Positions 1-30,945 of a stretch of DNA of 32,000 nt are shown piece by piece. The notes below the pieces were generated by a model. It worked only from the letters and a program-made list of their open reading frames with translations. It ran no database searches and was not told where the DNA came from. The position numbers were made by a program, and so were the translations under genes. The stretch comes from Pantoea cypripedii. GTDB taxonomy: Bacteria > Pseudomonadota > Gammaproteobacteria > Enterobacterales > Enterobacteriaceae. Position 1 is the stretch's first letter, and the number at the start of each line of letters is the position of its first letter. The stretch covers positions 2,744,412 to 2,776,411 of the forward strand of contig NZ_CP024768.1 in assembly GCF_011395035.1 (NCBI RefSeq), written 5' to 3'.

Positions 1-248
1 GGCGAGAGGTTTATCAGCTTGACAAGCTGGGCACCGATGAATCGCTTACCCTCAGCAAACGCTGTATCACGCTCACTGTCCGGCCGGTAGCTCAGGTCGT
101 AATAGCCGGTAAGGCTCATCAGTTCTGCGAGGATGAGCTTTTGCTGTGACTCGGTTGCAACGCCTTTCCCCATCGCTTTCAGGGCGTAGACAAAGGGGAT
201 ATTCTCAGACCATTTGTACGGCAGATACGGCTCAGGTGGCTTTATCAT
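1..248 (-). CDS. Phage morphogenesis-region protein, N-terminal part only (the gene runs off the window)
   Basis: ATG at 248-246 overlaps the portal TGA (ATGA). The frame stays open to base 3 (MIKPPEPYLPYKWSENIPFVYALKAMGKG...). It is absent from the ORF track because no stop lies in the window. Confidence 0.5.
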   Translation of the reverse strand, partial: MIKPPEPYLPYKWSENIPFVYALKAMGKGVATESQQKLILAELMSLTGYYDLSYRPDSERDTAFAEGKRFIGAQLVKLINLS

Positions 249-1858
249 GCTGCGGCCTCATTGAATGATTTGGCTGCATCGGCCACCGTCTGAAGTGTCT
301 GAGCACCGCCCTGAACAGACTGCATTGCTGCTGCATCCTGCTGCTGTTGTGCCTGCTGCTGAATAATCTGGTTGGCGTCATCCTCACTGCGCAGCCATTT
401 AGCCGGTACGCCGTAGCCATCCATCGCGTCGCGGAATGCTGTGCGGATATCAACATCAGCGGTAACGCTGGGGTCAACGGACGCTGCAATCTGGAGCATC
501 CCGGCAGTGGCCTGAAGCTGGCCCTGTTTCTCCTGACCAATCGCAGCCTGAAGCGGACTTTCAAAGGTGAACTGAACATCCTGCCCCTGAAGCGCTGGCG
601 GGATGTCATACTTCGAACCAAACGCGCCAGCCTGCATCAGTAAAGAGAACGTCATATCACACAGCTCGCCGTTGTAGTTCTGCTCAACCGGAGAGAACAG
701 CGGCAACGCCTGGCGGATGTATTCCTGCACGCGCTGACTTACTTCATATGCGGTCATGCCAGATGTCTGCGGAAGCGTCAGGCTGTTCAGATAGAAAGCC
801 TGGTGAATCATGTTGCGGACGTCTTCGCGGATATTCATGCCTGCCGGTAACTGAGCAGACTTGGTGAATTCAGCAATGTGATTGCGGATGTCCTGGTCAC
901 CTTCAATATCCGCCCACGTAATCCCGCCTGACATCAGGTTGAAGTCATCGCGGAACACTGATTTGTTAGCAACCAGTGGCGGGTCTACTGCTTTCTCGCC
1001 AGCCTCAAGCAGCACCCGGGTGATTGACTGAATCAGGCGAGCATCAGGCAGTGCAACAATCGTTGACGGTGAATAGGCGTACTGTGACCCCGAGACTGTC
1101 TGCCAGCGCGGTATGCAGTACATCCGGTTAAGCACCGGCGTTTCTTCCATGATGAATTCGTTTTCGCAGTCGATATAGAGCGAGACGAACGGCGCGCGGC
1201 TTTTGCCGATGGCATAGTCATCATGGGGAACAATGATGTGGCGACACTCAATTTCCCGGTACGGGTCTTTGTCGAGATTAGCGGTGACCTGCGGGCTTAT
1301 CTTGCCGCGGAACAATTGCTGAAGTGCTCGCGCCGTTGGCTTCCACTTGCGATGGATAGTGTCGATTTCACCATTACCATTCTCTGCCCAGGCGATATCA
1401 CGCAGGTGCCAGCAACGATAGAGCAAGCCAGCTGCATCTCTGTTCAGTTCAACGGTGATTGCACACTGCCCGAACGCTGCGAAATCGTGGTCGCCTTCTT
1501 TGGTGGCCCGGACAAACTGAGAACCACGGGAGTACATCGCCCGGTACTGAATGTCTCGCGCCGCCTCAAGCCAGACTTTCGATGAATGGTCCGGCTGATT
1601 GCCTTCAACGCTCAGGTTGAACCACTTATCACGTCGAAGCATTGAAGCAAACGCATCACCGAGCTCACGACGCGCGAGCACCGGATAGCTCGTCATGAGA
1701 TGATCGGCGAATTCATTGCCCAGTGAGCGGGTGATTGTGAAGTCAGCGCGCTCCGGATAGAAGTTGTCAGCGATTTCCTGCCAGAGCGACAGCAGAGACG
1801 ATTTCTTACTGAACAGGTGATCGCCGTTTTTAATCAGTTGCTGCGCTCTTGCGTCCAT
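245..1858 (-). CDS. Portal protein
   Basis: 537-aa ORF directly downstream of terL and a small coupled ORF. Size and position are typical of a portal. The Q-rich acidic C-terminus resembles podovirus head-to-tail connector proteins (recalled, not searched). Confidence 0.8.
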   Translation of the reverse strand: MDARAQQLIKNGDHLFSKKSSLLSLWQEIADNFYPERADFTITRSLGNEFADHLMTSYPVLARRELGDAFASMLRRDKWFNLSVEGNQPDHSSKVWLEAARDIQYRAMYSRGSQFVRATKEGDHDFAAFGQCAITVELNRDAAGLLYRCWHLRDIAWAENGNGEIDTIHRKWKPTARALQQLFRGKISPQVTANLDKDPYREIECRHIIVPHDDYAIGKSRAPFVSLYIDCENEFIMEETPVLNRMYCIPRWQTVSGSQYAYSPSTIVALPDARLIQSITRVLLEAGEKAVDPPLVANKSVFRDDFNLMSGGITWADIEGDQDIRNHIAEFTKSAQLPAGMNIREDVRNMIHQAFYLNSLTLPQTSGMTAYEVSQRVQEYIRQALPLFSPVEQNYNGELCDMTFSLLMQAGAFGSKYDIPPALQGQDVQFTFESPLQAAIGQEKQGQLQATAGMLQIAASVDPSVTADVDIRTAFRDAMDGYGVPAKWLRSEDDANQIIQQQAQQQQDAAAMQSVQGGAQTLQTVADAAKSFNEAAA

Positions 1859-2074
1859 TTAACCACCTAATTTATTGCTACTGCTTCCGGTAAGAATTGT
1901 GCTGGAGCGACCGCTTCGGCTCTGACTCTGTGCAATGCTGCGCAGGCGTGCCTGTTTCACTGCATCGGTATCCTCGGTTGGTGCCGCTTCCGTCTCTTCG
2001 GTCTGCACGGTTGGCGTGCTTGTACCGAGAATGCTGCCGACCACATTGCCAACTGCTTTTGTTACTCCGCCCAT
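1859..2074 (-). CDS. Small Ser/Thr-rich protein between terL and portal
   Basis: 71 aa. Its ATG shares one base with the terL TGA (TGATG), and its TAA abuts the portal ATG. Tightly coupled. Confidence 0.55.
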   Translation of the reverse strand: MGGVTKAVGNVVGSILGTSTPTVQTEETEAAPTEDTDAVKQARLRSIAQSQSRSGRSSTILTGSSSNKLGG

Positions 2075-3669
2075 CAGCGATTCCTCTTCATCTTCGAATG
2101 ACCGAGATTTACTTTTGGCGCGCCACTTCTGACACGGTAGCCGCCTCTGATTTGTTCCTGCTTAATGCCGTCGAACCACGACATCACCACGGCGTCTCCG
2201 TCATCCGGAGAGCGCCCGAGACGCTTAACCAGCGATTCTTTGGCTTCGAGGTGAATCATCCCGCCGCCGTTGCCACCGCGTTTCACCTCATAGGTTGGTG
2301 CGGTAAGGTCAGACAGGAGTGTCGGGTCATCAGGCAGGCAGATTGTTGAGCCGCCCGGCTGGTCAGGATTGAGTGCTTCGCGCAGCTTCCAGTAGGCCTC
2401 TGTTCGCACGTTGGCAAACTTCAGCAGGCCATCCTGCGTTCTGCGAGGTGAGGCTTTGACGCCCATATATGAGACGGTATCCACGCCGTTTTCACGGAGG
2501 TGGGCGTATGCATCGCCGCCCCAGCCACCGCCGATATCGACGATCACCTTTGCGCCATCGCGACGCTTTGAGATAACCAGACCGGCAACATCAGTGCCGC
2601 CTGGCGTTTCTTTGCCGGGAACCTTAATGAGTCTCGCGAACCAGGAGTCATGGCGAGGTGCAAGCACTGTGTTATCAGAGCCACCCTGTGCAACGTCCAC
2701 CCCAATGGCGCTCATTGGAATGCCAACAGGTGGTGCCTCAGTCCAGCGCTTCATAGCTGCCTGAACCCACGCAGTAGGGATTGCCTGATTAGGCTCGTCC
2801 TGCAATGAGGCTCTGAACTGGCCGTCACGGTATGCGTCGCGGAGTTCTTTCGGCAGGCTGTTCAGTATTCGTGAATATTCACCGTCCTGAGCTAGGTCGG
2901 GGTTATCACTCAGCTTTGCAGGGATGAATGTTCTCGACTTTGCATGAATCGGCGAACCATCTGGCGCATAGCCGTGCGGGCCATACCCATCAACCTCAAC
3001 CTCTTCATCTGCTTCGTTGCGGATATACCATCGCAATTCGCCAGGCTTTGCCGGATTGGGGTGATTCGGGTCGAGCCATGCTCCCCAATGCTGAATAACC
3101 CACAGGCCATTGGCATTTGTTGGCGGGTTACCTGTTGCCACCACCCGGCAGCGCTGACCTTTGGTCGTGGAGCGGTTCCAGATGGTGATGAATTCGTACT
3201 GCGCTTTGAGGAAGTCAGTGACCTCATCAAAGCAAATCAGGTCGTGCGGGTCGCCTTTGTAGCGCTGCTTGTCTTCTTCCAGCTCGCAGCCGCCGTACTG
3301 GATTAGCTGCTTCCCACTGCGCCACACGAGGTCTGAACCATTCCACCCAGTGCGATCGCCATCGAACAGTTTGCCAATCAGCTCGGCCTCGGCCAGCTTC
3401 TGGGCATCACCACGGATGCGCCGCAGAATCAGTGAGCGCTCATGCGATGTGACAGCCAGGCCATTAATCAGCGCGCTCTTGCCGCCGCCAGCCTGTCCGC
3501 CATAGAACAGTTCGTCAGCTTCACAGTAGTAAGCATCCGTCTGAGGGCCGGGATTCGGCACCCATGACATACCCTCAGTAGCTGCCATCACGTCTTTTTC
3601 GACAGCCTTCAGCTCTTCCGGCGACAGCGTTTTCAGGCGCTCCAGAACATCATCGAACGATATGCTCAT
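2074..3669 (-). CDS. Terminase large subunit
   Basis: 531 aa with Walker A GGQAGGGKS near the N-terminus. A C-terminal nuclease-type region follows. It sits directly after the small terminase subunit. Confidence 0.9.
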   Translation of the reverse strand: MSISFDDVLERLKTLSPEELKAVEKDVMAATEGMSWVPNPGPQTDAYYCEADELFYGGQAGGGKSALINGLAVTSHERSLILRRIRGDAQKLAEAELIGKLFDGDRTGWNGSDLVWRSGKQLIQYGGCELEEDKQRYKGDPHDLICFDEVTDFLKAQYEFITIWNRSTTKGQRCRVVATGNPPTNANGLWVIQHWGAWLDPNHPNPAKPGELRWYIRNEADEEVEVDGYGPHGYAPDGSPIHAKSRTFIPAKLSDNPDLAQDGEYSRILNSLPKELRDAYRDGQFRASLQDEPNQAIPTAWVQAAMKRWTEAPPVGIPMSAIGVDVAQGGSDNTVLAPRHDSWFARLIKVPGKETPGGTDVAGLVISKRRDGAKVIVDIGGGWGGDAYAHLRENGVDTVSYMGVKASPRRTQDGLLKFANVRTEAYWKLREALNPDQPGGSTICLPDDPTLLSDLTAPTYEVKRGGNGGGMIHLEAKESLVKRLGRSPDDGDAVVMSWFDGIKQEQIRGGYRVRSGAPKVNLGHSKMKRNR

Positions 3670-3670
3670 A

Positions 3671-4228
3671 TCACTTCATCGCTTTGGTAAGAGTGAATGC
3701 CAGGCGGCGGGCTATGGTGTTGAGGTCTTCGGATTTAACAGTGACTTCGCCAGAATGCTCGGTCTGAACTTTCTCCCTGAATGCCTGCACATTGACGTGC
3801 TTGCCAAGCAGCTCAAGGTTCTTAACCTTGTCAGGCCATTTAATTTTCTTGAGGATGTTTTCAGTCGTCGTTTCGTCGAAGTTGGTGATACTGGTATTGA
3901 TATCCAGACCGCTCAGCGTGGTGCGCCAGACTTTCGGCCATTCGCTGATTGGCTTGATACCACCGTCATCATTCAGGATGTCGAGCACATCCATCTGGTC
4001 GATTTCAGCCAGGCGGCGAAGCACATAATCAGCATCGATATCCACGCGTTCGTTACGCGCAGCCTGAAGCGCTGAAATCCGCTCCTGAATGTGAGGTTTG
4101 GTGAGGTTCTCGTAACCTGTCTCTTTAGCAGTCTTCTCGCTGTACCCTGCTCGAATAGCCGCTTGAGTTGCGTTCAGGTCGATAAGGTACTCGCGACAAA
4201 ACATTTCCTGCTTGTCGTTGAGCGCCAT
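3671..4228 (-). CDS. Terminase small subunit
   Basis: Start chosen at MALNDKQEMFCREYLIDLNATQAAIRAGYS (AGGAA SD upstream). This is the N-terminal HTH typical of the Terminase_2 small-subunit family. Its stop lies 1 nt from the terL ATG. Confidence 0.8.
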   Translation of the reverse strand: MALNDKQEMFCREYLIDLNATQAAIRAGYSEKTAKETGYENLTKPHIQERISALQAARNERVDIDADYVLRRLAEIDQMDVLDILNDDGGIKPISEWPKVWRTTLSGLDINTSITNFDETTTENILKKIKWPDKVKNLELLGKHVNVQAFREKVQTEHSGEVTVKSEDLNTIARRLAFTLTKAMK

Positions 4229-4351
4229 TTTAGAATTTCCTGCTGCTTTGTCGGATATATTGCCGTGATGTAGCGATACCACCACATCAGGATTCAGAGT
4301 GTTTATTCTGTCAAAGCCACTACATGAATGGCTTTTGCAGAATTTTATAAA

Positions 4352-4966
4352 TCAATGATTACGAAAGAATGCGTAGGTGCCAATCCCATCGCGACCTAAG
4401 TTGCTTTCGATGGTGTTGTTCTCAGCACAGAGGAACCCGTTGTCATCGAACCAGCGGAGCAGGCCGTAATGAGTCCAGTACCAGATGTGTTCGTCTTTTC
4501 GGAAATGGCGGGATCTGAGTATGTGCGATGAGTCCGTGAAGATGGGGACCGATACGAATACCCATTCAGTTGCCTGCTTAATGGCATTCTCCGGGATGTC
4601 GATATGCTCCAGTACATCCCAGAATGTCAGCGCTTTGCATTTGTGAGCGTAAATGTCGTGATAGGCACCACGGTTAATCAGCCACTCGACACCACGCGGG
4701 TTAACGTCATAGCCTTTACCGTTAATTGCTTCAACGAACTGGCCGCAGCCGATACCCACATCTGTTACAGGCCCCGTATAGTATCGGCGCACCAGGTCAA
4801 CGCGAGCCTGGGTAAGTTTGCGCCCCATCTCCGTGTCGGCCATCTTCTGGTATTTTGCGAAATAGTCGCCATCGTATGGCCTGTCTTTCGGTACGGGGTA
4901 ATGCCCGACGCCCAACTCGGGGAAGAAAGCCAGTTCGCGCTTTACCAGCTCAGAGATGTTTCTCAT
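4352..4966 (-). CDS. Class I SAM-dependent methyltransferase
   Basis: Start at MRNISELV (AGGA SD), overlapping the upstream gene by 17 nt. Motif I is VTDVGIGCGQF, post-I is GYDVN, and motif II-like is FWDVLEHI. Confidence 0.75.
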   Translation of the reverse strand: MRNISELVKRELAFFPELGVGHYPVPKDRPYDGDYFAKYQKMADTEMGRKLTQARVDLVRRYYTGPVTDVGIGCGQFVEAINGKGYDVNPRGVEWLINRGAYHDIYAHKCKALTFWDVLEHIDIPENAIKQATEWVFVSVPIFTDSSHILRSRHFRKDEHIWYWTHYGLLRWFDDNGFLCAENNTIESNLGRDGIGTYAFFRNH

Positions 4967-5840
4967 CCAGCCATCCTTTAACTTTTTCACTGAGGCCGGT
5001 AATCGTTTTGTCGCAGTTGTGATCCATTGACTGGCACATGCAGTAAACGTCCGGGTAGATGAATTTGGTGTTGGAGGTATCCATGTATCGCGGGTCGGAT
5101 ACCAGGTCGGGGTGATTGTTGCCACCGTGGCCGCCGAGAAGGCAGATTGTCGGTGTGCGGTATGCTGTCGCAGCTACCAGGGCGAAACTTACGCCGGTCA
5201 CCACCACAGTAGAACGCTCAATCAGCGCCATCACCTGAGTAATGCTCAGTTCGCCAGAGTGGTATTTCTCATGTGCGAATGGCTCACAGTCCGGTATCCA
5301 TTCTTTCTGGATGCCTGTATCGCAGGTGTCAGCAATGCTGATGCAGTGATAACCACGCTCGGCCAGTAATCGTGAGCACTGGTCAACGTAATCGTTCAGC
5401 GGTCCACGGGATTTATTGCACCACTCGTCACGCTCTGTTGTCGGGCGAATGATGACAACGGGTTTGTTATCGGGTAGCGCAATGGGTGCCGGATAGGACG
5501 GCATGTCCATTAGCGTTGATGGTTCGAAACCAAAGCAGTCTGCAAATGCCTGCATGATGCTTTTCTGTTTCAGGTCATCGTTGTTGTAGCGAGGCTGTAT
5601 TACCTTGCACTTATCAGGTGGGTCACTGAATTTGACCGTGCTTTTCTGTTCATTCCGCCTTTGTGTTCTCAGGTTGCTATTTGCCCTGATGAACTTCAGG
5701 CCGGGCATATCACAGAAAAACTCTGGCAGTGGAGTCCGTACATAAACATCCTTGCCCTGCTTCAGTAGCTCCCTGATAAATGGCCTCTGGAATATCGTGT
5801 CGCCAATACCGTGATAGGTATTTACTAAAACTTTCTTCAC
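4950..5840 (-). CDS. GT-B fold glycosyltransferase, GT9 (heptosyltransferase)-like
   Basis: 296 aa with a GTG start. The N-terminal HGIGDTIFQRPFIRELL and C-terminal ITQVMALIERSTVVVTGVSFALVAATAYRTPTICLLGG resemble ADP-heptose transferase signatures. A Cys/His cluster CMCQSMDHNC lies near the C-terminus. Confidence 0.6.
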   Translation of the reverse strand: MKKVLVNTYHGIGDTIFQRPFIRELLKQGKDVYVRTPLPEFFCDMPGLKFIRANSNLRTQRRNEQKSTVKFSDPPDKCKVIQPRYNNDDLKQKSIMQAFADCFGFEPSTLMDMPSYPAPIALPDNKPVVIIRPTTERDEWCNKSRGPLNDYVDQCSRLLAERGYHCISIADTCDTGIQKEWIPDCEPFAHEKYHSGELSITQVMALIERSTVVVTGVSFALVAATAYRTPTICLLGGHGGNNHPDLVSDPRYMDTSNTKFIYPDVYCMCQSMDHNCDKTITGLSEKVKGWLDEKHL

Positions 5841-6046
5841 TTCTCTGTCTCTCCAGCGTCACGACTCGAACCGGCCACATCGTCGTTCATGCGATGAAAG
5901 GGAAATCCAGCGAGTGGCTGGCAAAACCTTGCCTGCTCCTTTTGCTTACTGATGCGCTGGTACAGGGAGGTTCACCGCGATGCGGCCTGTAGGTCACGGC
6001 TAACATCAGGGCATGCACGGGAGGATCGGCCCGTTCGGGGAAGGCG

Positions 6047-6214
6047 TTACTCGGTGGCGGCCTGTTCCGTTGCAACATCAGCAACGATGTCGGTGATTTC
6101 CAGCACTGGCGCGTTCTCTGCCAGATATTTGGTAACCACAGCTGCTTTCAGGTCGTCGTTTTTGTTTACGATGGCTACAACTTCAGCCGAAGTAAGTGAT
6201 ACGGTCGTGGTCAT
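6047..6214 (-). CDS. Small acidic protein (55 aa), unknown function
   Basis: Hand-translated as MTTTVSLTSAEVVAIVNKNDDLKAAVVTKYLAENAPVLEITDIVADVATEQAATE. AAGGAAAC SD upstream. Below the ORF-track size cutoff. Confidence 0.45.
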   Translation of the reverse strand: MTTTVSLTSAEVVAIVNKNDDLKAAVVTKYLAENAPVLEITDIVADVATEQAATE

Positions 6215-6245: not shown

Positions 6246-6392
6246 TTAAGCCGAGGTGTTACCCGCTGATGCAGCAGCCGCTGCGGCCACTTTCTTCTGA
6301 AACCAGTTGCGGATGGTCACCCAGCCACCACAGACCAGAACGAGAGTTGAAATCACGGCGGAGTACCACGCCAGAATGTCGGTGAGAGTCAT
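6246..6392 (-). CDS. Small single-pass membrane protein (48 aa)
   Basis: ATG overlaps the Rz TGA (ATGA). Sequence is MTLTDILAWYSAVISTLVLVCGGWVTIRNWFQKKVAAAAAASAGNTSA, with one hydrophobic helix. Confidence 0.5.
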   Translation of the reverse strand: MTLTDILAWYSAVISTLVLVCGGWVTIRNWFQKKVAAAAAASAGNTSA

Positions 6393-6937
6393 TTCTTTTC
6401 TCCGGGGTTTGAATTTGCATCGCCAGCAATGACGCCAGCTTTCTGAAGTGATCTGATGTAACCCTGCAAGTAATCTATTTTTGCCTGGTCACTGATGATT
6501 CCGGCGCGGATGTCGAGAACAGACTGTCCAGCGTTTGCAGTGAGGTTGATTTTGGCTGCATCGCCCATGCTGCCGGTGCTGGTTGCTGAGTCTGTGCCGG
6601 GCTTGCAATTTGTGACGGCTTTGGCGTCGAGCTGCACGCGACTATTACCAGAGGCAACAGAACGACGCAGAGCTTCGTTTTCCTGCAACGCATCGGTGAG
6701 TTCTCCGGTGATTTTCTTATCGAGTGCGGCAACGGATGCCTGAACGCCGTTAAGTCCGTCGATGGCTTTCGACAGGTTTTCAGCTGCCTTGTCACTGATG
6801 GATTTCAGCTCGTTAGCCTGGGTGAGCTTCAGCTCTGAAATCTGGTTCGATTTAACCAGGTTATTGCCGAAGGCACCGATTACGACGCCAGCCCCAACTG
6901 CTATTGCGAACAGAAACGTGCTGGCTGATGTGCTCAT
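6389..6937 (-). CDS. Rz: i-spanin (Rz-like)
   Basis: Start at MSTSASTFLFAIAVGAGVVIGAF overlaps the endolysin TGA (ATGA). It has an N-terminal TM helix plus a long coiled-coil-like periplasmic region. An embedded lipoprotein ORF is present. Confidence 0.75.
   Translation of the reverse strand: MSTSASTFLFAIAVGAGVVIGAFGNNLVKSNQISELKLTQANELKSISDKAAENLSKAIDGLNGVQASVAALDKKITGELTDALQENEALRRSVASGNSRVQLDAKAVTNCKPGTDSATSTGSMGDAAKINLTANAGQSVLDIRAGIISDQAKIDYLQGYIRSLQKAGVIAGDANSNPGEKK
6475..6693 (-). CDS. Rz1: o-spanin (Rz1-like lipoprotein) embedded in Rz in another frame
   Basis: MRCRKTKLCVVLLPLVIVAC|SS has a lipobox-type signal followed by a Pro-rich mature part. GGAGAA SD. Lies entirely inside the Rz ORF. 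Confidence 0.7.
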   Translation of the reverse strand: MRCRKTKLCVVLLPLVIVACSSTPKPSQIASPAQTQQPAPAAWAMQPKSTSLQTLDSLFSTSAPESSVTRQK

Positions 6938-7482
6938 TGGTCCGCCTTCAGGCACAGCGCCTTTTCTTTGTCGCGACGGGCAACGAGTCCGGGCAATTTC
7001 TTCCCGCCAGAATTGACGAAATCAGGCAGGTGGTTGCACATCATCGTCCAGTTACCGGCCTGAGCGTATTTGTGTATTGAGGTTTCAAACCAACCTTTTC
7101 GCGCAGGGCTGTAATATTTCTGAAGGCCATCACATCCAACGTTGAAGACAGCACTGGTCATCGCGCTGAATGCGTTATCGGACATTGAGCGACCACGGAA
7201 GCTACGGTTAACGCAGTCTTCCGCAATGCTGATGTTCTTTTCCCAGTCCTTGGCGATCTGTTCGTCAGTCTTGCCCGACCAGACGTTGTGCGTGTTGCCA
7301 ATGCCATCGGTCAGCACGCCAGCCGGGCACACATAAGGATCACGCCGACAGCTTTCAGCATTTCCGATAAGCTCAAGTCCAGCCTGGTTGGTTCGCACAT
7401 TACCGGACGTCACCACAATGGCAATGATTGCCGACACCGAACACACCACGGAGCCAGCTTTAGCAATCTTCTTAATGGACAT
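6934..7482 (-). CDS. R: SAR endolysin (P1 Lyz-like lysozyme)
   Basis: An N-terminal weakly hydrophobic signal-anchor-release segment (AGSVVCSVSAIIAIVVTSG) is followed by NVRTNQAGLELIGNAESCRRDPYVCPAGVLTDGIGNTH. This closely matches the recalled P1 Lyz sequence. The start could be the GTG at 7497 instead. Confidence 0.85.
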   Translation of the reverse strand: MSIKKIAKAGSVVCSVSAIIAIVVTSGNVRTNQAGLELIGNAESCRRDPYVCPAGVLTDGIGNTHNVWSGKTDEQIAKDWEKNISIAEDCVNRSFRGRSMSDNAFSAMTSAVFNVGCDGLQKYYSPARKGWFETSIHKYAQAGNWTMMCNHLPDFVNSGGKKLPGLVARRDKEKALCLKADQ

Positions 7483-7702
7483 CGTTCTGCGCTTCACGTT
7501 TGGCTTTGCTGATCCGGTCCCATACGCCGAAGCCTACAGTCGTTAACCAGCCAAGGATTGATATGATCAACGTCCCTATGACACCTATCGCCGTCCATTG
7601 CTGAGGGGTATACGAATTAAGCAGGTCGCCAAGCCAGTAGAAAAAACCGGTGTACGTGACCGCTTTTGTACCCAACGCGATTTTGTCTGGCATAGTTTTC
7701 AT
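7472..7702 (-). CDS. S: Holin, phage 21 S-like (pinholin class) with dual-start motif
   Basis: MKTMPDKIALGTKAVTYTGFFYWLGDLLNSYTPQQWTAIGVIGTLIISILGWL has two TMDs and an M-K-T-M dual start. GAGGTGAT SD. It resembles the recalled S21 sequence. Confidence 0.8.
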   Translation of the reverse strand: MKTMPDKIALGTKAVTYTGFFYWLGDLLNSYTPQQWTAIGVIGTLIISILGWLTTVGFGVWDRISKAKREAQNDVH

Positions 7703-7807
7703 CTCATCACCTCGCTTGTTAGCGGCGGTGCTGTCTGTGGTCTCAAAGAAAAGTGCGCAACGCCACGTCGTTACAAGGAGTAAGTGAGCAGTGATTGGCG
7801 AGCGCAA

Positions 7808-7838
7808 ATAAAAAAGGGGCCGCTCAATGGCGACCCCT
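7808..7838 (-). terminator. Rho-independent terminator (second of two between Q and holin)
   Basis: On the minus strand AGGGGTCGC-cattga-GCGGCCCCT is followed by TTTTTTATTT. Confidence 0.7.
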
Positions 7839-7860
7839 GAAATTTGTAGGATTTAGAATG

Positions 7861-7904
7861 CAAAAAAGCTGCCGGTGCATTCCTAAGAACACTTACGGCA
7901 GCTT
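7861..7904 (-). terminator. Rho-independent terminator-like hairpin (first, promoter-proximal)
   Basis: On the minus strand AAGCTGCCG...CGGCAGCTT forms a 9-bp stem with a 21-nt structured loop. TTTTTTG follows. Confidence 0.5.
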
Positions 7905-7908
7905 ACCT

Positions 7909-8436
7909 TTAAATTGTGGCTAAATGGCTAACAGAAGTCAACATGTTATTTGCAGAATGCTTAACTTTCGATACGCGTTTGCGATCGTTAAAGGCATTTT
8001 GCAGCGGCTGGTACAAAATGAACAAACTAGCGTTGAGAATCTCATCTACCTCATTCCTGCACGTAGCGAATGACGGCTTTCTGAAACTCTCTCCACTTCT
8101 GCCGGACATTTTGCGGGGACTTGCGACCTTGTGATAGTAAGATGCAATTGCACGCTTGGATGAGCCGTGTGCGTAGTAACTGAGCAGGATGCCATAGGCT
8201 TTTTTATCGATAGACATGACGGAGTCCACGACCTGAGAAATCAAGAGTCCGTCATCATCGTTGCACATTGGCCTGGTTGTGTAGGGTTGCGGCTCAACGG
8301 TAGCCATGAAGTGCGCTATCATGCTGCTTTGCCGCTTCTCCAGCCTTCCGCTATAGACCCATGCACCCCATAATTCCATCCACCCATTAATCCAGTCGTG
8401 CTGGCCTTTATCGAGATTCAGCTCTCTTACCGACAT
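7909..8436 (-). CDS. Q: Late antiterminator Q (QuuD/PF06530-like)
   Basis: Start at MSVRELNLDK with a strong AGGAGG SD. LWGAWVY...RPMCNDDDGLLISQVV...LLSYYAHGSS matches the recalled QuuD-type pattern. Positioned immediately upstream of the lysis genes. Confidence 0.8.
   Translation of the reverse strand: MSVRELNLDKGQHDWINGWMELWGAWVYSGRLEKRQSSMIAHFMATVEPQPYTTRPMCNDDDGLLISQVVDSVMSIDKKAYGILLSYYAHGSSKRAIASYYHKVASPRKMSGRSGESFRKPSFATCRNEVDEILNASLFILYQPLQNAFNDRKRVSKVKHSANNMLTSVSHLATI
7913..7941 (-). promoter_or_regulatory. Candidate late promoter PR' (target of Q)
   Basis: On the minus strand TTGACT (7941-7936), a 17-nt spacer, then CACAAT (7918-7913), at the 3' end of Q. Short terminated leaders follow, as in the lambda PR'/6S arrangement. 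Confidence 0.35.
8111..8143 (+). promoter_or_regulatory. Candidate CII-dependent antisense promoter inside Q (paQ-like)
   Basis: TTGC-ggggac-TTGC at 8111-8124 on the strand antisense to Q. TAAGAT lies 13 nt downstream (8138-8143). Confidence 0.4.
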
Positions 8437-8539
8437 TTCTTCTTCCTCCTGGGTGATAAATCCCACGATTGAACATGAGTTGGCTGGGGTTCTGGTTTGA
8501 TGGGGGTGAAGTGGGTGAGAAGTTTGGTTAGCCAGGCGT

Positions 8540-10109: not shown

Positions 10110-10446
10110 TGGCTTCCCTCCCCTGCCTGATTAGCCGGTCAAACTCCTGAACTGGACTATGGCGGCACTCTTCGAAAACCGTATTCACAGAATCCTTTCG
10201 TGGTTTCTGGAAATTTTCCTGGCGCACTCTGGCAGGTTTGCCATCCATGTAGCCTACTCTCAGTCTGCAAACATGGTCGTGGTTATGACCCTGGCGACTA
10301 ACGATTCCGGCTGTCACCATTTTTGACAGCATCCCCATTGATGAGCATCGAAGAAATCCTAATGTCTCAATGTGGTTGTGTATCTGAGTTGATGTGGCAT
10401 GACCTTGCTCTTTCAGGTACTTGATAATCTCTTCGCGTATCATCAT
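10099..10446 (-). CDS. Hypothetical protein, possible winged-helix DNA binder
   Basis: 115 aa. The N-terminal IIKYLKEQGHATSTQIHNHI looks wHTH-like. Its ATG overlaps the methylase TGA. Confidence 0.45.
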   Translation of the reverse strand: MMIREEIIKYLKEQGHATSTQIHNHIETLGFLRCSSMGMLSKMVTAGIVSRQGHNHDHVCRLRVGYMDGKPARVRQENFQKPRKDSVNTVFEECRHSPVQEFDRLIRQGREANEI

Positions 10447-11033
10447 GCTGCGCTCCTGTTCTCTTTGATGCTGGCAATGCCCGGCAACAGATCAAACGCG
10501 TTATCACACTGATTGCCCCACATATCCCATCCTGAAACGCTGTCCCGGCTGAATAACTCGCAACGCGGAACGTCACCCAGCAGCCTGACGAGCAGATCCC
10601 TGAACTCTGGAGGCTTGGCGCTGTGCTCCATACGGGGAGCTGTAAGGTGCTGGCAGATTGACGCATCCAGTCGCTGTGGCAATTTACCGCGAACGGCAAA
10701 CAGGCAGTCCTCGCTATTGGCGCGAGTCATATGGCCCATGCCGATCGCACTATTACCCTTGTGTTTGTTGGTTTTGTGCCAGGTGAATCCCTTCATGGTC
10801 ATCAGCCGGAATCCCCAGGCATCCATTACTTTGAGGGCTTCAAGCGGCTGCGTTGGTACCCACCACATAGCCAGGAGGCACGAGGCAGGATCTGCCAGGC
10901 CCCACACTGGCAACCGACTAATGTCTGCCACGCTCATGGTTTGGTATTTATGCCCGGCACCACGCTTGCCATCGTCGGCTTTATCGCGATATGTCCAGGG
11001 TGGATCCGCATAAATCAACGTGTATTTTTTCAT
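10443..11033 (-). CDS. MT-A70 family DNA N6-adenine methyltransferase
   Basis: Catalytic motif IYADPPWTY. 196 aa. ATGA coupling to ninB. Confidence 0.85.
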   Translation of the reverse strand: MKKYTLIYADPPWTYRDKADDGKRGAGHKYQTMSVADISRLPVWGLADPASCLLAMWWVPTQPLEALKVMDAWGFRLMTMKGFTWHKTNKHKGNSAIGMGHMTRANSEDCLFAVRGKLPQRLDASICQHLTAPRMEHSAKPPEFRDLLVRLLGDVPRCELFSRDSVSGWDMWGNQCDNAFDLLPGIASIKENRSAA

Positions 11034-16584: not shown

Positions 16585-16654
16585 TGGGGTGTGGCTGGGC
16601 CTGCATGGACTGATCACCCATGAAAACCCTGGTTCGAATCCGGGGCACTCCACC
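16585..16654 (+). ncRNA. tRNA-like element (non-canonical, no D-arm) with alanine-type acceptor stem and encoded CCA
   Basis: Acceptor GGGGTGT/GCACTCC with G3:U70, A73 and CCA. T-arm CCTGG-TTCGAAT-CCGGG. Central hairpin CATGG-(9 nt)-CCATG. Only 11 nt lie where a D-arm should be. Total 70 nt including CCA. Confidence 0.45.
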
Positions 16655-16681
16655 ACAAAGCTAACTGACAGGAGAATGACC

Positions 16682-25811: not shown

Positions 25812-25843
25812 ATAGCCTTCCCTATCAACCAATGAGGTCACAT

Positions 25844-27133
25844 ATGTCTGGATATCCAACCGGAGTGGAGCGCCATGGGGAGACTCTGCGCATCTGGTTC
25901 ATCTACCAGGGGAAGCGCGTCAGAGAATCCCTTGGCGTTCCTGATACGCCAAAGAACAGGAAGATGGCAGCAGAACTGAGGGCATCAGTCTGTTACGCCA
26001 TAAAGACAGGGACATTCGTTTATGAAGAAAGGTTTCCTGAATCGAAGAATGTAACCCATAAGGAGAAAAGCAAAAAGTCTACGACCCTTGAGCAGCTTTG
26101 CATGCGTTGGATGGAGCTGAAAAAACCCGATCTGGCAAAATCAACGTTCAAGCGTTACACCAGCGATCTGAATCTCACCATGTATTTTCTTGGGAAAGAT
26201 ACCCTGGCCTCAGCCATCACTAACGAGGATGCGATCGCTTTCAGAAATGAGTTGCTGACTGGATATCACATTGTGCACGAAGGAAGAAAGACGAGGACAC
26301 AAAAGAAGGGTCGCTCTGTCAGGACAGTAAACGAAGCACTGAACGTGCTGAAGGGAATGTTTATGTTTGCTCATCGCAATGGGTATACCGGAGCGAATCC
26401 CTTTGCAGATGTTGGCTACCTCAAAAAGCAGAGGACACAGCCAGATCCCCTTACAAGAGATGAATTTGCAAGACTCATCGGAGGGTGCAGAAATGATCAG
26501 GCCAAAAATGTATGGACATTCGCCTGCTTCACGGGGTTGCGTCATGGGGAGATATCTGGCCTGGCATGGGAGGACATAGACACAAAAAACTGGACCGCGT
26601 CAGTAGAGAGGAACCTTCCCGTTCGGGGGCACTTTGCATTACCAAAAACGGAGTCAGGGAGAAGGACCATCCAGCTGACCCAGCCAGCAATTGATGCACT
26701 TAAGCGCCAGATGCCATTCACCCGTATGAATAAACCAGTGCCGGTTGATGTCCATCTTGGCCCAGGTATAGAGCCACGAAGAGATGACTGTACGTTTGTA
26801 TTCTCACCGCTCTACTCAACATCAAAGAACCAGGCTGGAGACTGGTACTCTCCAGGCTCCCTTGGAGCTATGTGGAACTTTGCCATGAAACGCGCCGGAC
26901 TAAGGCATCGGAAAGCATATGAGTCACGACACACCTACGCTTGCTGGGCGTTAAGTTCCGGTGCCAATCCAAGCTTTGTTGCTGTGCAGATGGGTCATGT
27001 GTCAGCGAAGATGATTTATGAGGTTTACGGGAAGTGGATGAGCGAGAACAACCAGTCCCAACTCGACATTCTCAACAGCAGTTTCGGCAACTATGCCCCA
27101 TCCATGCCCCAAAACGTAAGGGTTCCAGGATAA
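25844..27133 (+). CDS. int: Tyrosine integrase, Rac IntR-like (arm-binding DUF3596 N-terminus)
   Basis: Start at MSGYPTGVERHGETLRIWFIYQGKRVRESL. Blocks GRSVRTV, PDPL, GLRHGEISGLAWEDID, SRHTYACWALSSGANPSFVAVQMGH and MIYEVYGKW parallel the recalled IntR sequence. Confidence 0.9.
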   Translation: MSGYPTGVERHGETLRIWFIYQGKRVRESLGVPDTPKNRKMAAELRASVCYAIKTGTFVYEERFPESKNVTHKEKSKKSTTLEQLCMRWMELKKPDLAKSTFKRYTSDLNLTMYFLGKDTLASAITNEDAIAFRNELLTGYHIVHEGRKTRTQKKGRSVRTVNEALNVLKGMFMFAHRNGYTGANPFADVGYLKKQRTQPDPLTRDEFARLIGGCRNDQAKNVWTFACFTGLRHGEISGLAWEDIDTKNWTASVERNLPVRGHFALPKTESGRRTIQLTQPAIDALKRQMPFTRMNKPVPVDVHLGPGIEPRRDDCTFVFSPLYSTSKNQAGDWYSPGSLGAMWNFAMKRAGLRHRKAYESRHTYACWALSSGANPSFVAVQMGHVSAKMIYEVYGKWMSENNQSQLDILNSSFGNYAPSMPQNVRVPG

Positions 27134-27160: not shown

Positions 27161-27991
27161 TCAATGAGTGGTATAGCGAACGTGGCTAAACGAATGGAGC
27201 TGCGCTGAGGGGAACGGCATGACCGAGAAAAACGGACCGCACATTAGCGTCAGACCCATTTTTTTAAATTCATCAGGAACATCGACCAGACACATTTCCG
27301 TCATCTCATGACGTAACGGAATCAATGCCAGCCCTGAACCATCCAGCAAATAGTTGATTCGTGAATAGGTGCAGTTGAACACATGGTCTGCATAAACCGT
27401 CTCCGATTGCCCGGATATAGAGGTAAAAACCTCCAGTCCTTCACCATATTCCCGGACTTTCTCCACCACCGCGTTGGTAACGATACGTACATTAGCCGCC
27501 GACAGTCGCTCAATCATGAGGTCACGTAGCTTGTGGGAATCAAATGCATATTCCCGGGTGGTGAACACCGAATCAATCAGTGTCGGATTCATCAGACGTT
27601 TTACTGAGGCAGGTGCCTCGTCACATTCGGCACCAATACGCTGACAGAAACGCAGAAATTGATCGCCAGTGACTTTGCTTAACGACCCGGCAACCAGATA
27701 ATACTTGGCAAAATCATCATCGATGCAGTCGCGGAATTCATTAACGAAACGCGGAAAAGAGAGACGCGATCGTAAAGCAGTAAGAATACTTCGAGGGTAA
27801 TGATAGCCATTATGCACGCGCGCCTGGTTAACATATGACGCTCGTGACATTAGCTGTTGGCTTTTCTCAAAAATAGTGACCTGACAACCCTTTAACGCCA
27901 GCTGTTCCGCCAGATATAAGCCGAAAAAACCACCGCCAGCGATAACAATATTTTTCGCCGGGCCAGCCTTATTTTTTGAGGCCTGTTGCAT
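27161..27991 (-). CDS. FAD-dependent oxidoreductase, probably C-terminally truncated
   Basis: Start at MQQASKNK. Dinucleotide-binding motif IVIAGGGFFGLYLAEQLA...IFEK. Only 276 aa. Its stop lies 27 bp from the convergent int stop. Confidence 0.7.
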   Translation of the reverse strand: MQQASKNKAGPAKNIVIAGGGFFGLYLAEQLALKGCQVTIFEKSQQLMSRASYVNQARVHNGYHYPRSILTALRSRLSFPRFVNEFRDCIDDDFAKYYLVAGSLSKVTGDQFLRFCQRIGAECDEAPASVKRLMNPTLIDSVFTTREYAFDSHKLRDLMIERLSAANVRIVTNAVVEKVREYGEGLEVFTSISGQSETVYADHVFNCTYSRINYLLDGSGLALIPLRHEMTEMCLVDVPDEFKKMGLTLMCGPFFSVMPFPSAQLHSFSHVRYTTH

Positions 27992-28201
27992 ATGTGATCC
28001 CCAAACCTGACAAACCATTCTTAGGCAATGTCTGATACTTTTTTTGTGTCAGGAATGATACTGACTTTGGAATTAAAAGGAAACGAAAAGGAAAAGTTAA
28101 GATTGCGTTAGATCAGGTTCCAGGAGGAAACAGATGTTTCTCATGCCACACACTGAAGATTCGGTGGTAAAAGGTAGATAAAGGCAGTGAAAAAAAGTGA
28201 C

Positions 28202-28700: not shown

Positions 28701-28764
28701 AATCCCTTGATTCAGTTGCAGCCAAGTGTAAGGATCGGCTCCTCACTTGCTACAGAACATTGCC

Positions 28765-29124
28765 ATGCTGAAACTCTTTGCAAGATACACATCGGTAGGT
28801 GTGATCAACACGTTAATACACTGGATCACCTTCGCCATCTGCGTCGAACGGGGTCTCCAGCAATCATTGTCCAACTTCATTGCATTTCTCGTTGCTGTAA
28901 CCTTCTCATTTTTCGCTAATGCCAAATGGACGTTCGGCTCAAATGCGACCACCATTCGCTACATCATGTATGTGTTCTTCATGGGAATGGTAGCGGTGAT
29001 GATAGGTTCATATGCTGACAGAATGAAAATTAGCCCAGTGGTGACGCTGGTTGTCTTCTCAGCCACCAGCCTAGTATGTGGATTTATCTATTCTAAATAC
29101 ATTATTTTCAGGGAAGATAAATGA
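28765..29124 (+). CDS. gtrA: GtrA bactoprenol-linked glucose translocase (flippase)
   Basis: [20 protein letters not shown]...[11 protein letters not shown]...[15 protein letters not shown] closely follows the GtrA consensus. 119 aa. Confidence 0.9.
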
Positions 29125-30047
29125 AAATATCTCTTGTTGTTCCTGTTCTTAATGAAGAGGAAGCACTGCCTGTTTTTTACGCTGCCATCCGCAATTTTCA
29201 GGGATTTGGCGATAATGATGTTGAAATAATTTTTATCAATGATGGAAGCACCGATAATACCGAGTCATTAATTCAGCAAATTGAAAAGACCGATCCCCTC
29301 GTTAAACATATTTGCTTTACACGTAACTTTGGTAAAGAACCCGCATTATTTGCCGGACTTGAATCATCAACCGGTGACGTGGTTATTCCTATCGATGTGG
29401 ATTTGCAGGATCCCATCGATGTCATCCCTCGTCTTATCGCCAGGTGGAAAGAAGGGGCTGACGTCGTTCTGGCAAAACGTATTGATCGTTCGTCCGATAG
29501 TCACCTGAAGCGCAAAAGTGCTGAATACTTTTATAAATTTCACAACTTGATCAGCAAGCCGCAGATTGAAGAGAATGTGGGTGACTTCCGCCTTATGTCT
29601 CGTGAAATCGTTGATAATATAAAACTTCTTCCTGAGAAAAATTTGTTCATGAAAGGCATTCTTTCATGGGTCGGTGGTCGTACTGCCGTCGTGGAATACA
29701 ACCGTGCCGAGCGAGTTGCAGGTTTGACAAAGTTTAATGGCTGGAAGTTATGGAATCTGGCGCTTGAAGGCATTACGTCGTTCTCCACTTTCCCTTTACG
29801 TGTGTGGACATATATTGGCTTTTTCGTCGCCGGGCTCTCATTCCTGTATGGTATATGGATGATTATTGACAAGCTGATTTGGGGCAACCCGGTAGCGGGT
29901 TATCCATCAATCCTCGTGTCAATTTTGTTTCTTGGTGGCATTCAGTTAATTGGTATTGGTGTACTGGGTGAGTACATCGGAAGAATTTATGTCGAGGCTA
30001 AACAAAGACCGAGATATATTATTAGAAATAAAGATAAAAAATCATGA
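29121..30047 (+). CDS. gtrB: GtrB bactoprenol glucosyltransferase (GT2)
   Basis: [17 protein letters not shown]...[10 protein letters not shown]...DVDLQDP is a GT2 DxD-type core. Two C-terminal TM helices. ATGA coupled to gtrA. Confidence 0.9.
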
Positions 30048-30117: not shown

Positions 30118-30945
30118 TTAACCCAAAGGCATCGTCATGGGATCACTCCAGCTATATTCGAAACCCAGCTCATCGCAAATCGCCCTGCCGTCGATGCTTT
30201 TTCCGACGTTGCCCAGTGGCTCGGCAACAAATGTCGGCGCTGTCAGCCCAAGCTGGCGTGCCACCGTGGGATAAAACTCACTGCGTGCAGGATGTTTTGG
30301 TGCGCACAAGTTATAAACGCGCCCGCCTTTCGGCGTCTGCAACAGCAATACGATGGCTTCCACCACATCATCCAGATGCACCAGATTCACCACATGCGAT
30401 CCATCACTTAAATCCGTTTTCCCGGCGAGAAAACGGCCGGGGTGACGGTTTGGCCCCACCAGCCCGGCAAGACGCACAATATCCACGCTGGTGCCCGGCA
30501 GATCGTGCAGCCAGTTTTCCAGCGCCACCAGCGTCTTACCGGCTACCGTTTCTGGCCGTAACGGGCTGCGTTCTTTCATCACTCCCGGACCCGGGCCATA
30601 CACCGATGTCGAACTGGTGAAGATAATCCGCGGGACTTTATAGGCCAGCGCCGTGTCCACCACGTTTTGCACCGCCTGCATATAGTCTTCGCCGCCCTGC
30701 ACCGTGCGACTGGCGGGTAAAGTCACCACCAATGCATCCACCGACAGTAGCGTATTCAGATCATCAGCTTCGCACTCAAGTTCCGGCGTCAGCACCAGCT
30801 GACACGCCTCAATACCGCAACGACGGGCCGCATCCACCCCATCCGGCGAGGTTTTGCTGCCCGTCACCTGCCAGCCGCGTGCCGTTAGCGCCATCGCCAG
30901 CGGCATGCCCAGCCATCCCAGCCCTACAATCGCGACCTTTTTCAT
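30118..30945 (-). CDS. yeeZ: YeeZ (NAD(P)-binding SDR/epimerase-family protein)
   Basis: MKKVAIVGLGWLGMPLAMALTARGWQVTGSKT... is collinear with recalled E. coli YeeZ. Divergent from the his operon, as in enterobacteria. Confidence 0.9.
   Translation of the reverse strand: MKKVAIVGLGWLGMPLAMALTARGWQVTGSKTSPDGVDAARRCGIEACQLVLTPELECEADDLNTLLSVDALVVTLPASRTVQGGEDYMQAVQNVVDTALAYKVPRIIFTSSTSVYGPGPGVMKERSPLRPETVAGKTLVALENWLHDLPGTSVDIVRLAGLVGPNRHPGRFLAGKTDLSDGSHVVNLVHLDDVVEAIVLLLQTPKGGRVYNLCAPKHPARSEFYPTVARQLGLTAPTFVAEPLGNVGKSIDGRAICDELGFEYSWSDPMTMPLG

Follow-up and report, generated by a model that had tools for sequence, protein, structure and literature searches.

Three kinds of target are known for phage-encoded glycosyltransferases: the host O-antigen (seroconversion), DNA (T4-type and TET-linked hypermodification), and the virion proteins of actinophages. 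Here, we analyze two overlapping genes in a 32-kb stretch of Pantoea cypripedii DNA (contig NZ_CP024768.1; hereafter, the window), one encoding a glycosyltransferase-like protein (GT) and the other a methyltransferase (MT), which lie between the lysis genes and terS of a lambdoid prophage. Databases already annotate these genes as “glycosyltransferase family 9 protein” and “methyltransferase.” In passages of two reports on actinophages, a glycosyltransferase together with a methyltransferase is taken to indicate that capsid and tail proteins are glycosylated (PMC13313380, citing Freeman et al. 2023, Cell Host Microbe 31:1216; PMC11256854), and TibC, a GT9-like enzyme with a Cys-bound metal, glycosylates a protein (PMC4358343). 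The cassette to which the window pair belongs fits none of the three characterized phage systems by sequence, yet it is present in hundreds of phage genomes. A preliminary description of this DNA knew of no established role for such a pair; likewise, the literature that we searched held no published function for the cassette, only annotations (for example, the tables in PMC10449497). We consider the two enzyme classes and the membership of the pair in this cassette highly probable, whereas the substrate can be named only tentatively.

The GT open reading frame (ORF) begins with a GTG codon preceded by GGAG about 9 nt upstream. Its product carries the motifs GIGDTIFQRP, TGVSFALVAATAYRTPTICLLGG, and CMCQSMDHNC and is a member of PHROG 6804 (E = 1e-66), a family of unknown function. 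Searches against heptosyltransferase families stayed below their cut-offs, with 13.2 bits for Pfam PF01075 (E = 0.057; cut-off, 22) and 19.5 bits for NCBIfam heptosyltransferase II (TIGR02195; cut-off, 134.6), and a precomputed PF01075 match is present on some GT homologs. The AlphaFold2 model of GT, built on an alignment of 42 homologs, reached a predicted local distance difference test (pLDDT) score of 95.1 and a predicted template modeling (pTM) score of 0.92. When this model was compared with the PDB using Foldseek, the best 30 matches were all WaaF, TibC, WaaC, or 3tov (E = 7.6e-10 to 5.6e-7); WaaF (1psw) was matched at E = 7.6e-10, and TibC (4rap/4rb4) gave the highest TM-scores (TMq up to 0.68). 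The GT family profile also matches WaaF by sequence (E = 2e-5) over the donor-binding C-terminal lobe (C-lobe), where the R/K-W/G-P phosphate region and a G-E-(T/L) motif are conserved in the profile alignment. On its predicted fold, GT is shown to be a GT-B glycosyltransferase of the GT9 (WaaC/WaaF/TibC) structural class. The label “GT9-like” given to it earlier is thus borne out by the fold only, and not by the Pfam and NCBIfam cut-offs or by the donor-site Asp. Since the scores fall below the family cut-offs and the GT9 donor Asp is not conserved, heptose is unproven as the donor.

Within the family, R58, Q60, R137, E139, and R145 are invariant in the 42-homolog alignment, and so is a CxCx4HxC cluster (C267-x-C269-x4-H274-x-C276) just before the last helix, which is probably a structural metal site. 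D14, in the GxGD (GIGD) motif at the end of strand 1, is nearly invariant; we take it to occupy the same topological position as the catalytic D13 of WaaC, a match of topology rather than of superposed residues. The model starts directly with a Rossmann strand (E3-7) and helix (H12-27), and no membrane segments are predicted in either GT or MT. The window GT has an isoelectric point (pI) of 6.7, against a family median of 8.7 with an N-terminal lobe (N-lobe) net charge of +4. Net charge was tried as a means of discriminating a protein from an acidic acceptor and was discarded, as these two pI values are indecisive.

The second gene starts at an ATG at 4966, with AAGGA 7 nt upstream, and its product carries the motifs VTDVGIGCGQF and DVLEH. 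This protein matches PHROG 6564 (E = 2e-81), exceeds the cut-off of Pfam PF13489 (Methyltransf_23; 27.9 bits, E = 2.2e-6; cut-off, 27), and has a full-length, 100% identical counterpart in a Pantoea cypripedii protein. Its AlphaFold2 model (pLDDT 94.3) matches class I methyltransferases in Foldseek, with E values from 6.5e-8 upward. Among the structural neighbors are methyltransferases of small molecules, sugar nucleotides, chitooligosaccharides, and RNA 2'-O positions, and no DNA base methyltransferase is found among them. These results show MT to be a class I S-adenosylmethionine (SAM)-dependent methyltransferase of the UbiG-like small-molecule or sugar type. The preliminary description had proposed this class, with which the Methyltransf_23 match, the fold, and the GxGxG motif all agree, and the structure search that it suggested for both proteins returned GT9-class matches for the first and class I methyltransferases for the second. 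Its coordinates also hold for the overlapping 296- and 204-aa genes on the minus strand, their 17-nt overlap, the separate Shine-Dalgarno sequence of MT, and the quoted motifs of both proteins, including CMCQSMDHNC, whose Cys/His cluster proves invariant across the family.

We then compared the junction of the two genes in the relatives for which both gene boundaries are annotated or called. Coordinates are those of the whole window throughout, and labels such as L008 denote fetched loci of relatives (among them L001 [D3], L005 [Bradyrhizobium], L090, L091, and L092). The same 17-nt overlap is found in L008, L090, Klebsiella phage Eowyn, and Enterobacter phage Mulvp2, while in JZ2, D3, PAJU2, L092, and L005 the overlap measures 4 to 64 nt. 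The conserved overlap suggests translational coupling of GT and MT. In the comparison of the window with L008 (nucleotide identity, 94.5%/85.5%), the ratio of nonsynonymous to synonymous substitution rates (dN/dS) was 0.106 for GT and 0.083 for MT; the values for terL and the portal gene were 0.034 and 0.052. Judging from these ratios, both genes are under purifying selection although the third gene of the cassette, described below, is absent. The PHROG matches, the hundreds of homologs, and the low dN/dS together indicate that both ORFs are real genes rather than chance reading frames.

Relatives of the cassette were detected in 591 IMG/VR loci, and an exhaustive profile search gathered 913 cluster representatives at E <= 1e-3, of which 570 reached E <= 1e-30. 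Using tblastn, we found both genes side by side in Pseudomonas phage D3 (orf12/orf13), PAJU2, PMG1, and other Detrevirus phages; in Enterobacter phage Mulvp2; in jumbo Klebsiella and Serratia phages such as Eowyn; and in a T4-like Synechococcus phage. In a 595-kb uncultured phage, only the MT query found a match. The adjacent, co-oriented, and overlapping arrangement is kept in 77 of the 80 IMG/VR loci, as well as in D3, PAJU2, Eowyn, and Mulvp2. The cassette is spread over phages of the gamma, alpha, and probably beta classes of proteobacteria, of cyanobacteria, and over jumbo phages. Four plasmid records carry the family, two of which are P. aeruginosa records of 52 to 57 kb with GT at D3-like coordinates, and the family was detected in 10 of 5,426 complete E. 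coli genomes, making it rare in this species. Overall, the GT family appears to be phage restricted and nearly absent from plasmids. No DNA nearly identical to the window was found in the phage and E. coli collections.

In most relatives, the pair is part of a triad. HMM searches of the window and 89 fetched loci placed a third, MptE-like gene in the order MptE-like, GT, MT in 84 of these 90 sequences, either directly upstream or, in D3-like phages, a few genes upstream. Its product of about 190 aa gives weak matches to PF01973 (MptE-like; E = 5e-7 to 0.14, below the cut-off) and a marginal one to the N-terminus of the sialyltransferase Cst-II (E about 0.5), shares motifs of the ASGPS and LLGYD types with the Maf/Cst-II/MptE group, and is labeled “alpha-2,3-sialyltransferase” in RefSeq. 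PF01973 also covers the Maf flagellin glycosyltransferases. The three activities are sometimes joined in one polypeptide: MptE-GT fusions occur in at least nine cluster representatives, MT-GT fusions in three, a GT-MT fusion in P0044, and a LicD-GT fusion in P0212, and tandem GT repeats are also found. One member of the GT family (P0244; 1,032 aa) carries an intein with Hint and LAGLIDADG domains, an uncommon feature in an accessory enzyme.

Searches of the 32-kb window, of the 10 kb beyond the pair in L008, and of L090 detected neither an MptE-like gene nor a remnant of one. Pair-only versions recur in L090, in L091 (a 70-kb phage contig), and in the T4-like cyanophage. This comparison shows the window pair to be a reduced form of the widespread three-gene cassette, whose third gene it has either lost or never had. 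The site where most relatives carry the MptE-like gene is occupied in the window by the spacer at 5841-6046, whose length of 206 nt and GC content of 59% (50.5% for the window) match the GC-rich noncoding stretch of about 200 nt described earlier. The spacer is about 88% identical to L008 and is noncoding, because the indels between the two are not multiples of three. Neither tblastn with five MptE-like proteins nor a maximum-sensitivity HMM search of all six frames revealed a remnant of the MptE-like gene in it. It was also considered as a structured RNA or a member of a known RNA family, and this was rejected on its fold (z = 0.01) and the lack of an Rfam match within it.

The edges of the pair differ among relatives. 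Downstream of MT, the 7-bp hairpin reported at 4313-4335 (AAAGCCA/TGGCTTT) is real and forms the core of an interrupted 15-bp stem at 4305-4343 (-17.3 kcal/mol; z = -3.86 versus shuffled sequences). It is not a canonical intrinsic terminator, as it lacks a U-tract, and the terminator scan did not call it. L008 has an extra 123-aa gene between MT and terS (L008 3747-4137) where the window has only the 66-nt hairpin spacer; the difference is an indel at the downstream edge of the cassette. On the upstream side, jackhmmer searches of the fetched loci showed that the 55-aa ORF at 6047-6214 is homologous to the N-terminus of longer proteins. One of these, a 127-aa protein in L090 (1691-2074), lies directly upstream of GT and probably carries an Ig-like C-terminal domain, as judged by eye; others are the 143-aa proteins of L034 and L035 (9839-10270). 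The window ORF thus looks like a truncated or minimal form of a longer protein. A conserved small acceptor protein upstream of the cassette was considered and rejected, as the 55-aa family is present in only five fetched loci and a second small-ORF family in four.

To describe where the cassette sits, we took the two genes closest to it on either side and counted their Pfam families over the 80 IMG/VR loci. Upstream, these were RusA (15), Q antiterminators (about 18), and lysis proteins (about 25); downstream, they were holins (about 29), endolysins (about 24), HNH (10), TerL (about 16), TerS (12), ParB_N (8), and TAGT (5). As a rough split based on ORF sizes, the cassette of lambdoid prophages lies between Q and the holin in about 38 of the 80 loci and between the lysis genes and the terminase in about 25. 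The E. coli LHM10-1 prophage, with the order Q-like gene, triad, and holin, is an example of the former, and the window and the Pantoea sp. JZ2 prophage are examples of the latter. The idea that phages of this kind normally pass from Rz straight to terS therefore does not hold: this junction is a usual cargo site, and dozens of prophages have the cassette there or between Q and the holin. In D3, PAJU2, the Bradyrhizobium prophage, the environmental locus L092, Mulvp2, and the T4-like cyanophage, it is found among head-completion, neck, and tail-completion genes. Across these phages, the cassette sits in late or structural gene blocks.

Some loci have further neighbors. In L010, L011, L017, L018, and L024, a ParB_N protein of about 222 aa comes next after the triad, and a 288-aa gene follows it; the five downstream TAGT matches are provisionally assigned to the 288-aa genes, on the basis of recurring gene sizes and pooled Pfam counts. 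In L091 (1-12133), a 131-aa gene separates GT and MT, and genes for ribonucleotide reductase and glutaredoxin adjoin them. Located 9 kb from the L091 pair are a C5 DNA methyltransferase and the domain of a 5-hydroxymethyldeoxyuridine (5-hmdU) DNA kinase (HMUDK_hel); this is the only context hinting at a connection to DNA hypermodification.

In the window itself, all genes of the region are on the minus strand and follow, from high to low coordinates, the order Q, a PR'-like promoter and terminator, holin, lysozyme, Rz, small ORFs, GT, MT, terS, terL, and portal (Table 1). The window represents a lambdoid prophage, since N, cI, cII, P, NinB, NinG, RecT, and an integrase are also present. A simple scan, which could miss a weak promoter, detected no sigma-70-like site in 5841-6046, and the late control region at 7815-7941 most likely drives the GT/MT pair. 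The layout had been called moron-like in the preliminary description; with no sigma-70-like site ahead of the pair, no U-tract behind it, and control of the Q/PR'/tR' type upstream, this proposal finds no support. Being part of a Q-dependent late operon, without a detected promoter of its own, the pair would therefore be made during lytic growth. A weak Rfam suhB/mmgR match (E = 0.085, below the gathering threshold) overlaps the late control region (7801-7941) and is probably just the terminator.

Table 1. Features of the late region of the window, listed in the direction of transcription
Feature	Coordinates	Strand	Evidence or remark
Q antiterminator	7909-8466	-	Phage_antitermQ, E = 1.8e-24
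PR'-like promoter	7941-7913	-	Downstream of Q gene; promoter scan
Strong terminator, 9-bp GC-rich stem with T-run	7838-7815	-	Terminator scan
Lysozyme	6934-7497	-	
Rz	6389-6955	-	
DUF1378-type ORF, 48 aa	Between Rz and 55-aa ORF	-	
55-aa ORF	6047-6214	-	Adjoins spacer upstream; without Pfam or PHROG match
Noncoding spacer, 206 nt	5841-6046	-	
GT, GT9-fold glycosyltransferase-like gene, 296 aa	4950-5840	-	
MT, class I SAM-dependent methyltransferase gene, 204 aa	4352-4966	-	
GT/MT overlap, 17 nt	4950-4966	-	Sequence
Interrupted 15-bp hairpin between MT and terS	4305-4343	-	In 66-nt spacer 4286-4351
terS	3671-4285	-	Directly downstream of pair; Pfam Terminase_2, E = 1.2e-39
terL	2074-3669	-	
Portal	245-1858	-	

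Other features of the window lie outside this region. An MT-A70-family DNA adenine methyltransferase gene, the only one for a DNA-modifying enzyme among the matches listed for the window, is found in the nin-like region (10443-11033, minus strand), and ARAGORN called a tRNA-Ile (anticodon gat) in the immunity/early-left region (16586-16655, plus strand), a call that could be genuine or spurious. A GtrA-like gene (28747-29124, plus strand) and a GT2/GtrB-like gene (29121-30047, plus strand), both of the classical bactoprenol-linked O-antigen glucosylation type, lie about 1.6 kb past the integrase (25832-27133, plus strand). They are flanked by a DAO-type oxidoreductase (27161-28018, minus strand) and an NAD epimerase (30118-30945, minus strand).

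How might the two enzymes work? We propose that GT and MT are soluble cytoplasmic enzymes that would act together on a sugar-bearing substrate, produced within the Q-dependent late transcript alongside lysis, packaging, and virion genes. GT would add a sugar to the acceptor, and MT would then O-methylate the transferred sugar as a cap. The donor would be a nucleotide-sugar of the host, as the cassette comes without genes for sugar biosynthesis. Where the cassette is complete, its MptE/sialyltransferase-like enzyme would add a further residue, possibly the first one. The acceptor would be a component of the particle made by the phage itself, that is, the virion proteins. Taken as a whole, coupled glycosylation and O-methylation with a virion acceptor is the explanation that we tentatively prefer, and the choice of virion components as the acceptor is itself a leaning of similar strength. 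It draws on the coupling of the two genes through overlaps and natural fusions, on their purifying selection without the third gene, on the late and structural setting, on the phage-restricted spread, on the annotation of the MptE-like PAJU2 ORF010 as “structural protein” in AP009624.1, and on analogy with actinophages, TibC, and Maf. A broader reading, in which the cassette is a widespread virion-glycosylation system of Gram-negative and cyanobacterial phages that places a short O-methyl-capped glycan, possibly an ulosonic acid plus a sugar in the manner of the lipopolysaccharide inner core, on particle proteins, is more doubtful.

Several observations weigh against a virion acceptor. No method has identified one. 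The virion proteins of the carriers are wholly different (HK97-like, BPP-1-like, T4-like, and jumbo), yet residues of the acceptor-side N-lobe are invariant, and its mildly basic character suits a protein no better than an acidic acceptor, such as 3-deoxy-D-manno-octulosonic acid (Kdo) or the core of lipopolysaccharide (LPS), DNA, or ulosonic acid. The cassette of lambdoid prophages occupies cargo hot spots and not positions among the structural genes. Lipooligosaccharide decoration, too, typically involves domains like the partners of this family (sialyltransferase-like, LicD, and methyltransferases). Conservation does not extend to the Asp of the GT9 D(S/T)G donor motif, as the NDSG of WaaF aligns to g-v-g-v in the family and the window has T-G-V-S-F in this stretch. 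Finally, the “structural protein” label of PAJU2 ORF010 could not be confirmed. Two sets of candidate acceptors were also discarded. The Ser/Thr/Pro-rich tails of D3 orf6.5 (L001 5691-5978) and of a 128-aa Bradyrhizobium ORF (L005 5666-6052) are an alternative frame of the MptE-like N-terminus; D3 orf7 is probably annotated too short, because the orf6.5 tail is the out-of-frame 5' part of an MptE-like gene with ASGPS. Collagen-like neighbors were found in only one locus (L092).

The acidic acceptor could instead belong to the host envelope. GT would then act like WaaC and WaaF, placing a sugar on the LPS inner core, or on a different Kdo-bearing glycolipid, on the cytoplasmic side of the inner membrane, and MT would cap it; the altered receptor would exclude superinfecting phages from lysogens or spare the progeny from adsorbing to cell debris. 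The LPS core is the standard acceptor of GT9 enzymes. The closest solved folds and the sole significant sequence-profile match of GT are LPS heptosyltransferases, but the donor motif of GT9 is not conserved, and the family appears restricted to phages rather than common to chromosomal LPS loci. Throughout the family, the acceptor-side lobe is basic, and the sialyltransferase-like and LicD partners are classic lipooligosaccharide-decorating enzymes. Moreover, without an MptE-like gene, the window GT would need a preexisting acceptor, which the Kdo-lipid A of the host would provide. Yet the cassette is 30 to 50% identical across hosts that include Synechococcus, while LPS cores differ greatly among these hosts. 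As for position, the Rz-terS junction is that of lambda bor, which is expressed in lysogens; however, no promoter-like site lies ahead of the pair, and D3-like phages and the T4-like cyanophage embed the genes in structural operons. On balance, we find an envelope acceptor unlikely.

DNA is the sole acceptor common to all of the carrier phages. In this scenario, phage DNA would be glycosylated after replication and before packaging, and the sugar would then be methylated, giving an antirestriction hypermodification; late expression beside the terminase would suit such a postreplicative modifier. Some loci have DNA-modification genes downstream, namely ParB_N (8), TAGT (5), Dam-like/GNAT (3), and, in the prophage of Pantoea sp. 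JZ2, a ParB-methylase; the L091 pair lies near ribonucleotide reductase, and 9 kb separate it from HMUDK and a C5 DNA methyltransferase. The window, however, lacks the expected partners: among the matches listed for its ORFs (25 of 42 Pfam families), there is no hydroxymethylase, TET/JBP, or other hydroxyl-creating enzyme, and the MT-A70 adenine methylase is the only DNA methyltransferase. D3, for its part, has reportedly been restriction mapped with ordinary enzymes. The N-lobe of GT is basic and its CCHC cluster loosely recalls zinc knuckles, but MT resembles small-molecule and sugar methyltransferases and not DNA methyltransferases. GT-B enzymes that place Kdo or heptose on 5-hydroxymethylcytosine do exist, although the known DNA-acting GT-B enzymes resemble T4 beta-GT, BshA, and MshA rather than GT9 (bioRxiv 10.1101/2023.12.21.572611). 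Modification of DNA by the cassette is, in our assessment, improbable.

The structural neighbors of MT are mostly enzymes of small molecules (ChlM, BezA, NodS, and toxoflavin methyltransferase), MptE in the strict sense acts as a pterin pyrophosphokinase, and no acceptor protein is conserved beside the cassette. The pair could accordingly make or inactivate a signaling or defense molecule, or drain the nucleotide-sugar pool of the host. Against this, LicD fusions and tandem GT repeats point to glycan building, and a late or structural placement is unusual for antidefense genes, which are mostly early. Membership in a defense system was rejected, as neither protein matches anything in the PADLOC library, and we consider a metabolite substrate quite improbable. 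Least of all do we expect a decaying remnant, in which the pair would be nonfunctional cargo left after the loss of the third gene: the MptE-like gene of 84 of the 90 sequences is indeed replaced by the 206-nt noncoding spacer, but both ORFs are intact and keep every family-invariant residue, their dN/dS versus L008 (0.11 and 0.08) is similar to that of terL and portal, and L090, L091, and the T4-like cyanophage likewise hold the pair alone.

The target of the cassette matters in each case. If Gram-negative phages glycosylate their virions, immune recognition and clearance in phage therapy would be affected; a new LPS-core conversion would affect host range and exclusion, and a new DNA modification would affect restriction evasion. 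Should the broader reading of a widespread virion-glycosylation system be true, D3, PAJU2, many enterobacterial prophages, and some jumbo phages would carry unnoticed glycosylated virions. Since D3 and PAJU2 are well studied, available, and equipped with the full cassette, the question is directly testable. The contribution of the window, whose locus is not unusual in itself, is that the pair persists under selection without the third gene, as a self-sufficient core.

Compared with known systems, GT shares with WaaC and WaaF (CAZy GT9, PF01075) a two-Rossmann GT-B fold, its best structural matches being 1psw, 2h1h, 2gt1, 6dfe, and 3tov. Unlike these enzymes, it is about 30 to 50 residues shorter, carries the invariant CxCx4HxC, and is encoded by phages, in whose late operons a methyltransferase always accompanies it. 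Absent from the window, the third gene of the cassette is linked to the Maf/Cst-II/MptE group by weak, subthreshold matches; its product has only about 190 aa and lacks the flanking substrate-binding domains of Maf. The glycosyltransferases that act on phage DNA (T4 beta-GT, TAGT, and the 5mYOX-associated GT-B enzymes) are likewise GT-B enzymes of phages that draw on nucleotide-sugars of the host, Kdo and heptose donors among them (10.1101/2023.12.21.572611), but they adjoin C5 methyltransferase/TET or thymidylate-synthase-like genes, partners that are absent from the window among the matches listed. TibC and AAH, of the bacterial autotransporter heptosyltransferases (BAHT), have a GT9-like fold and a Cys-bound metal module in the C-lobe shortly before the C-terminus (PMC4358343), and GT had been likened to them for this reason. 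The kinship was not upheld: TibC has a 97-residue N-terminal beta-barrel, a thumb made of a beta-hairpin, and a dodecameric ring, and its iron finger is formed by four Cys (C339, C342, C358, and C370) over about 32 residues (PMC4358343), whereas GT has no N-terminal barrel, holds three Cys and one His within 10 residues, and has lysis and terminase genes, rather than an autotransporter gene, as its neighbors. The virion glycosylation systems of actinophages belong to phages of a different group of hosts, the Actinobacteria. They too combine one or more phage glycosyltransferases with a methyltransferase, and the parallel with the late-region pair is one of gene content only.

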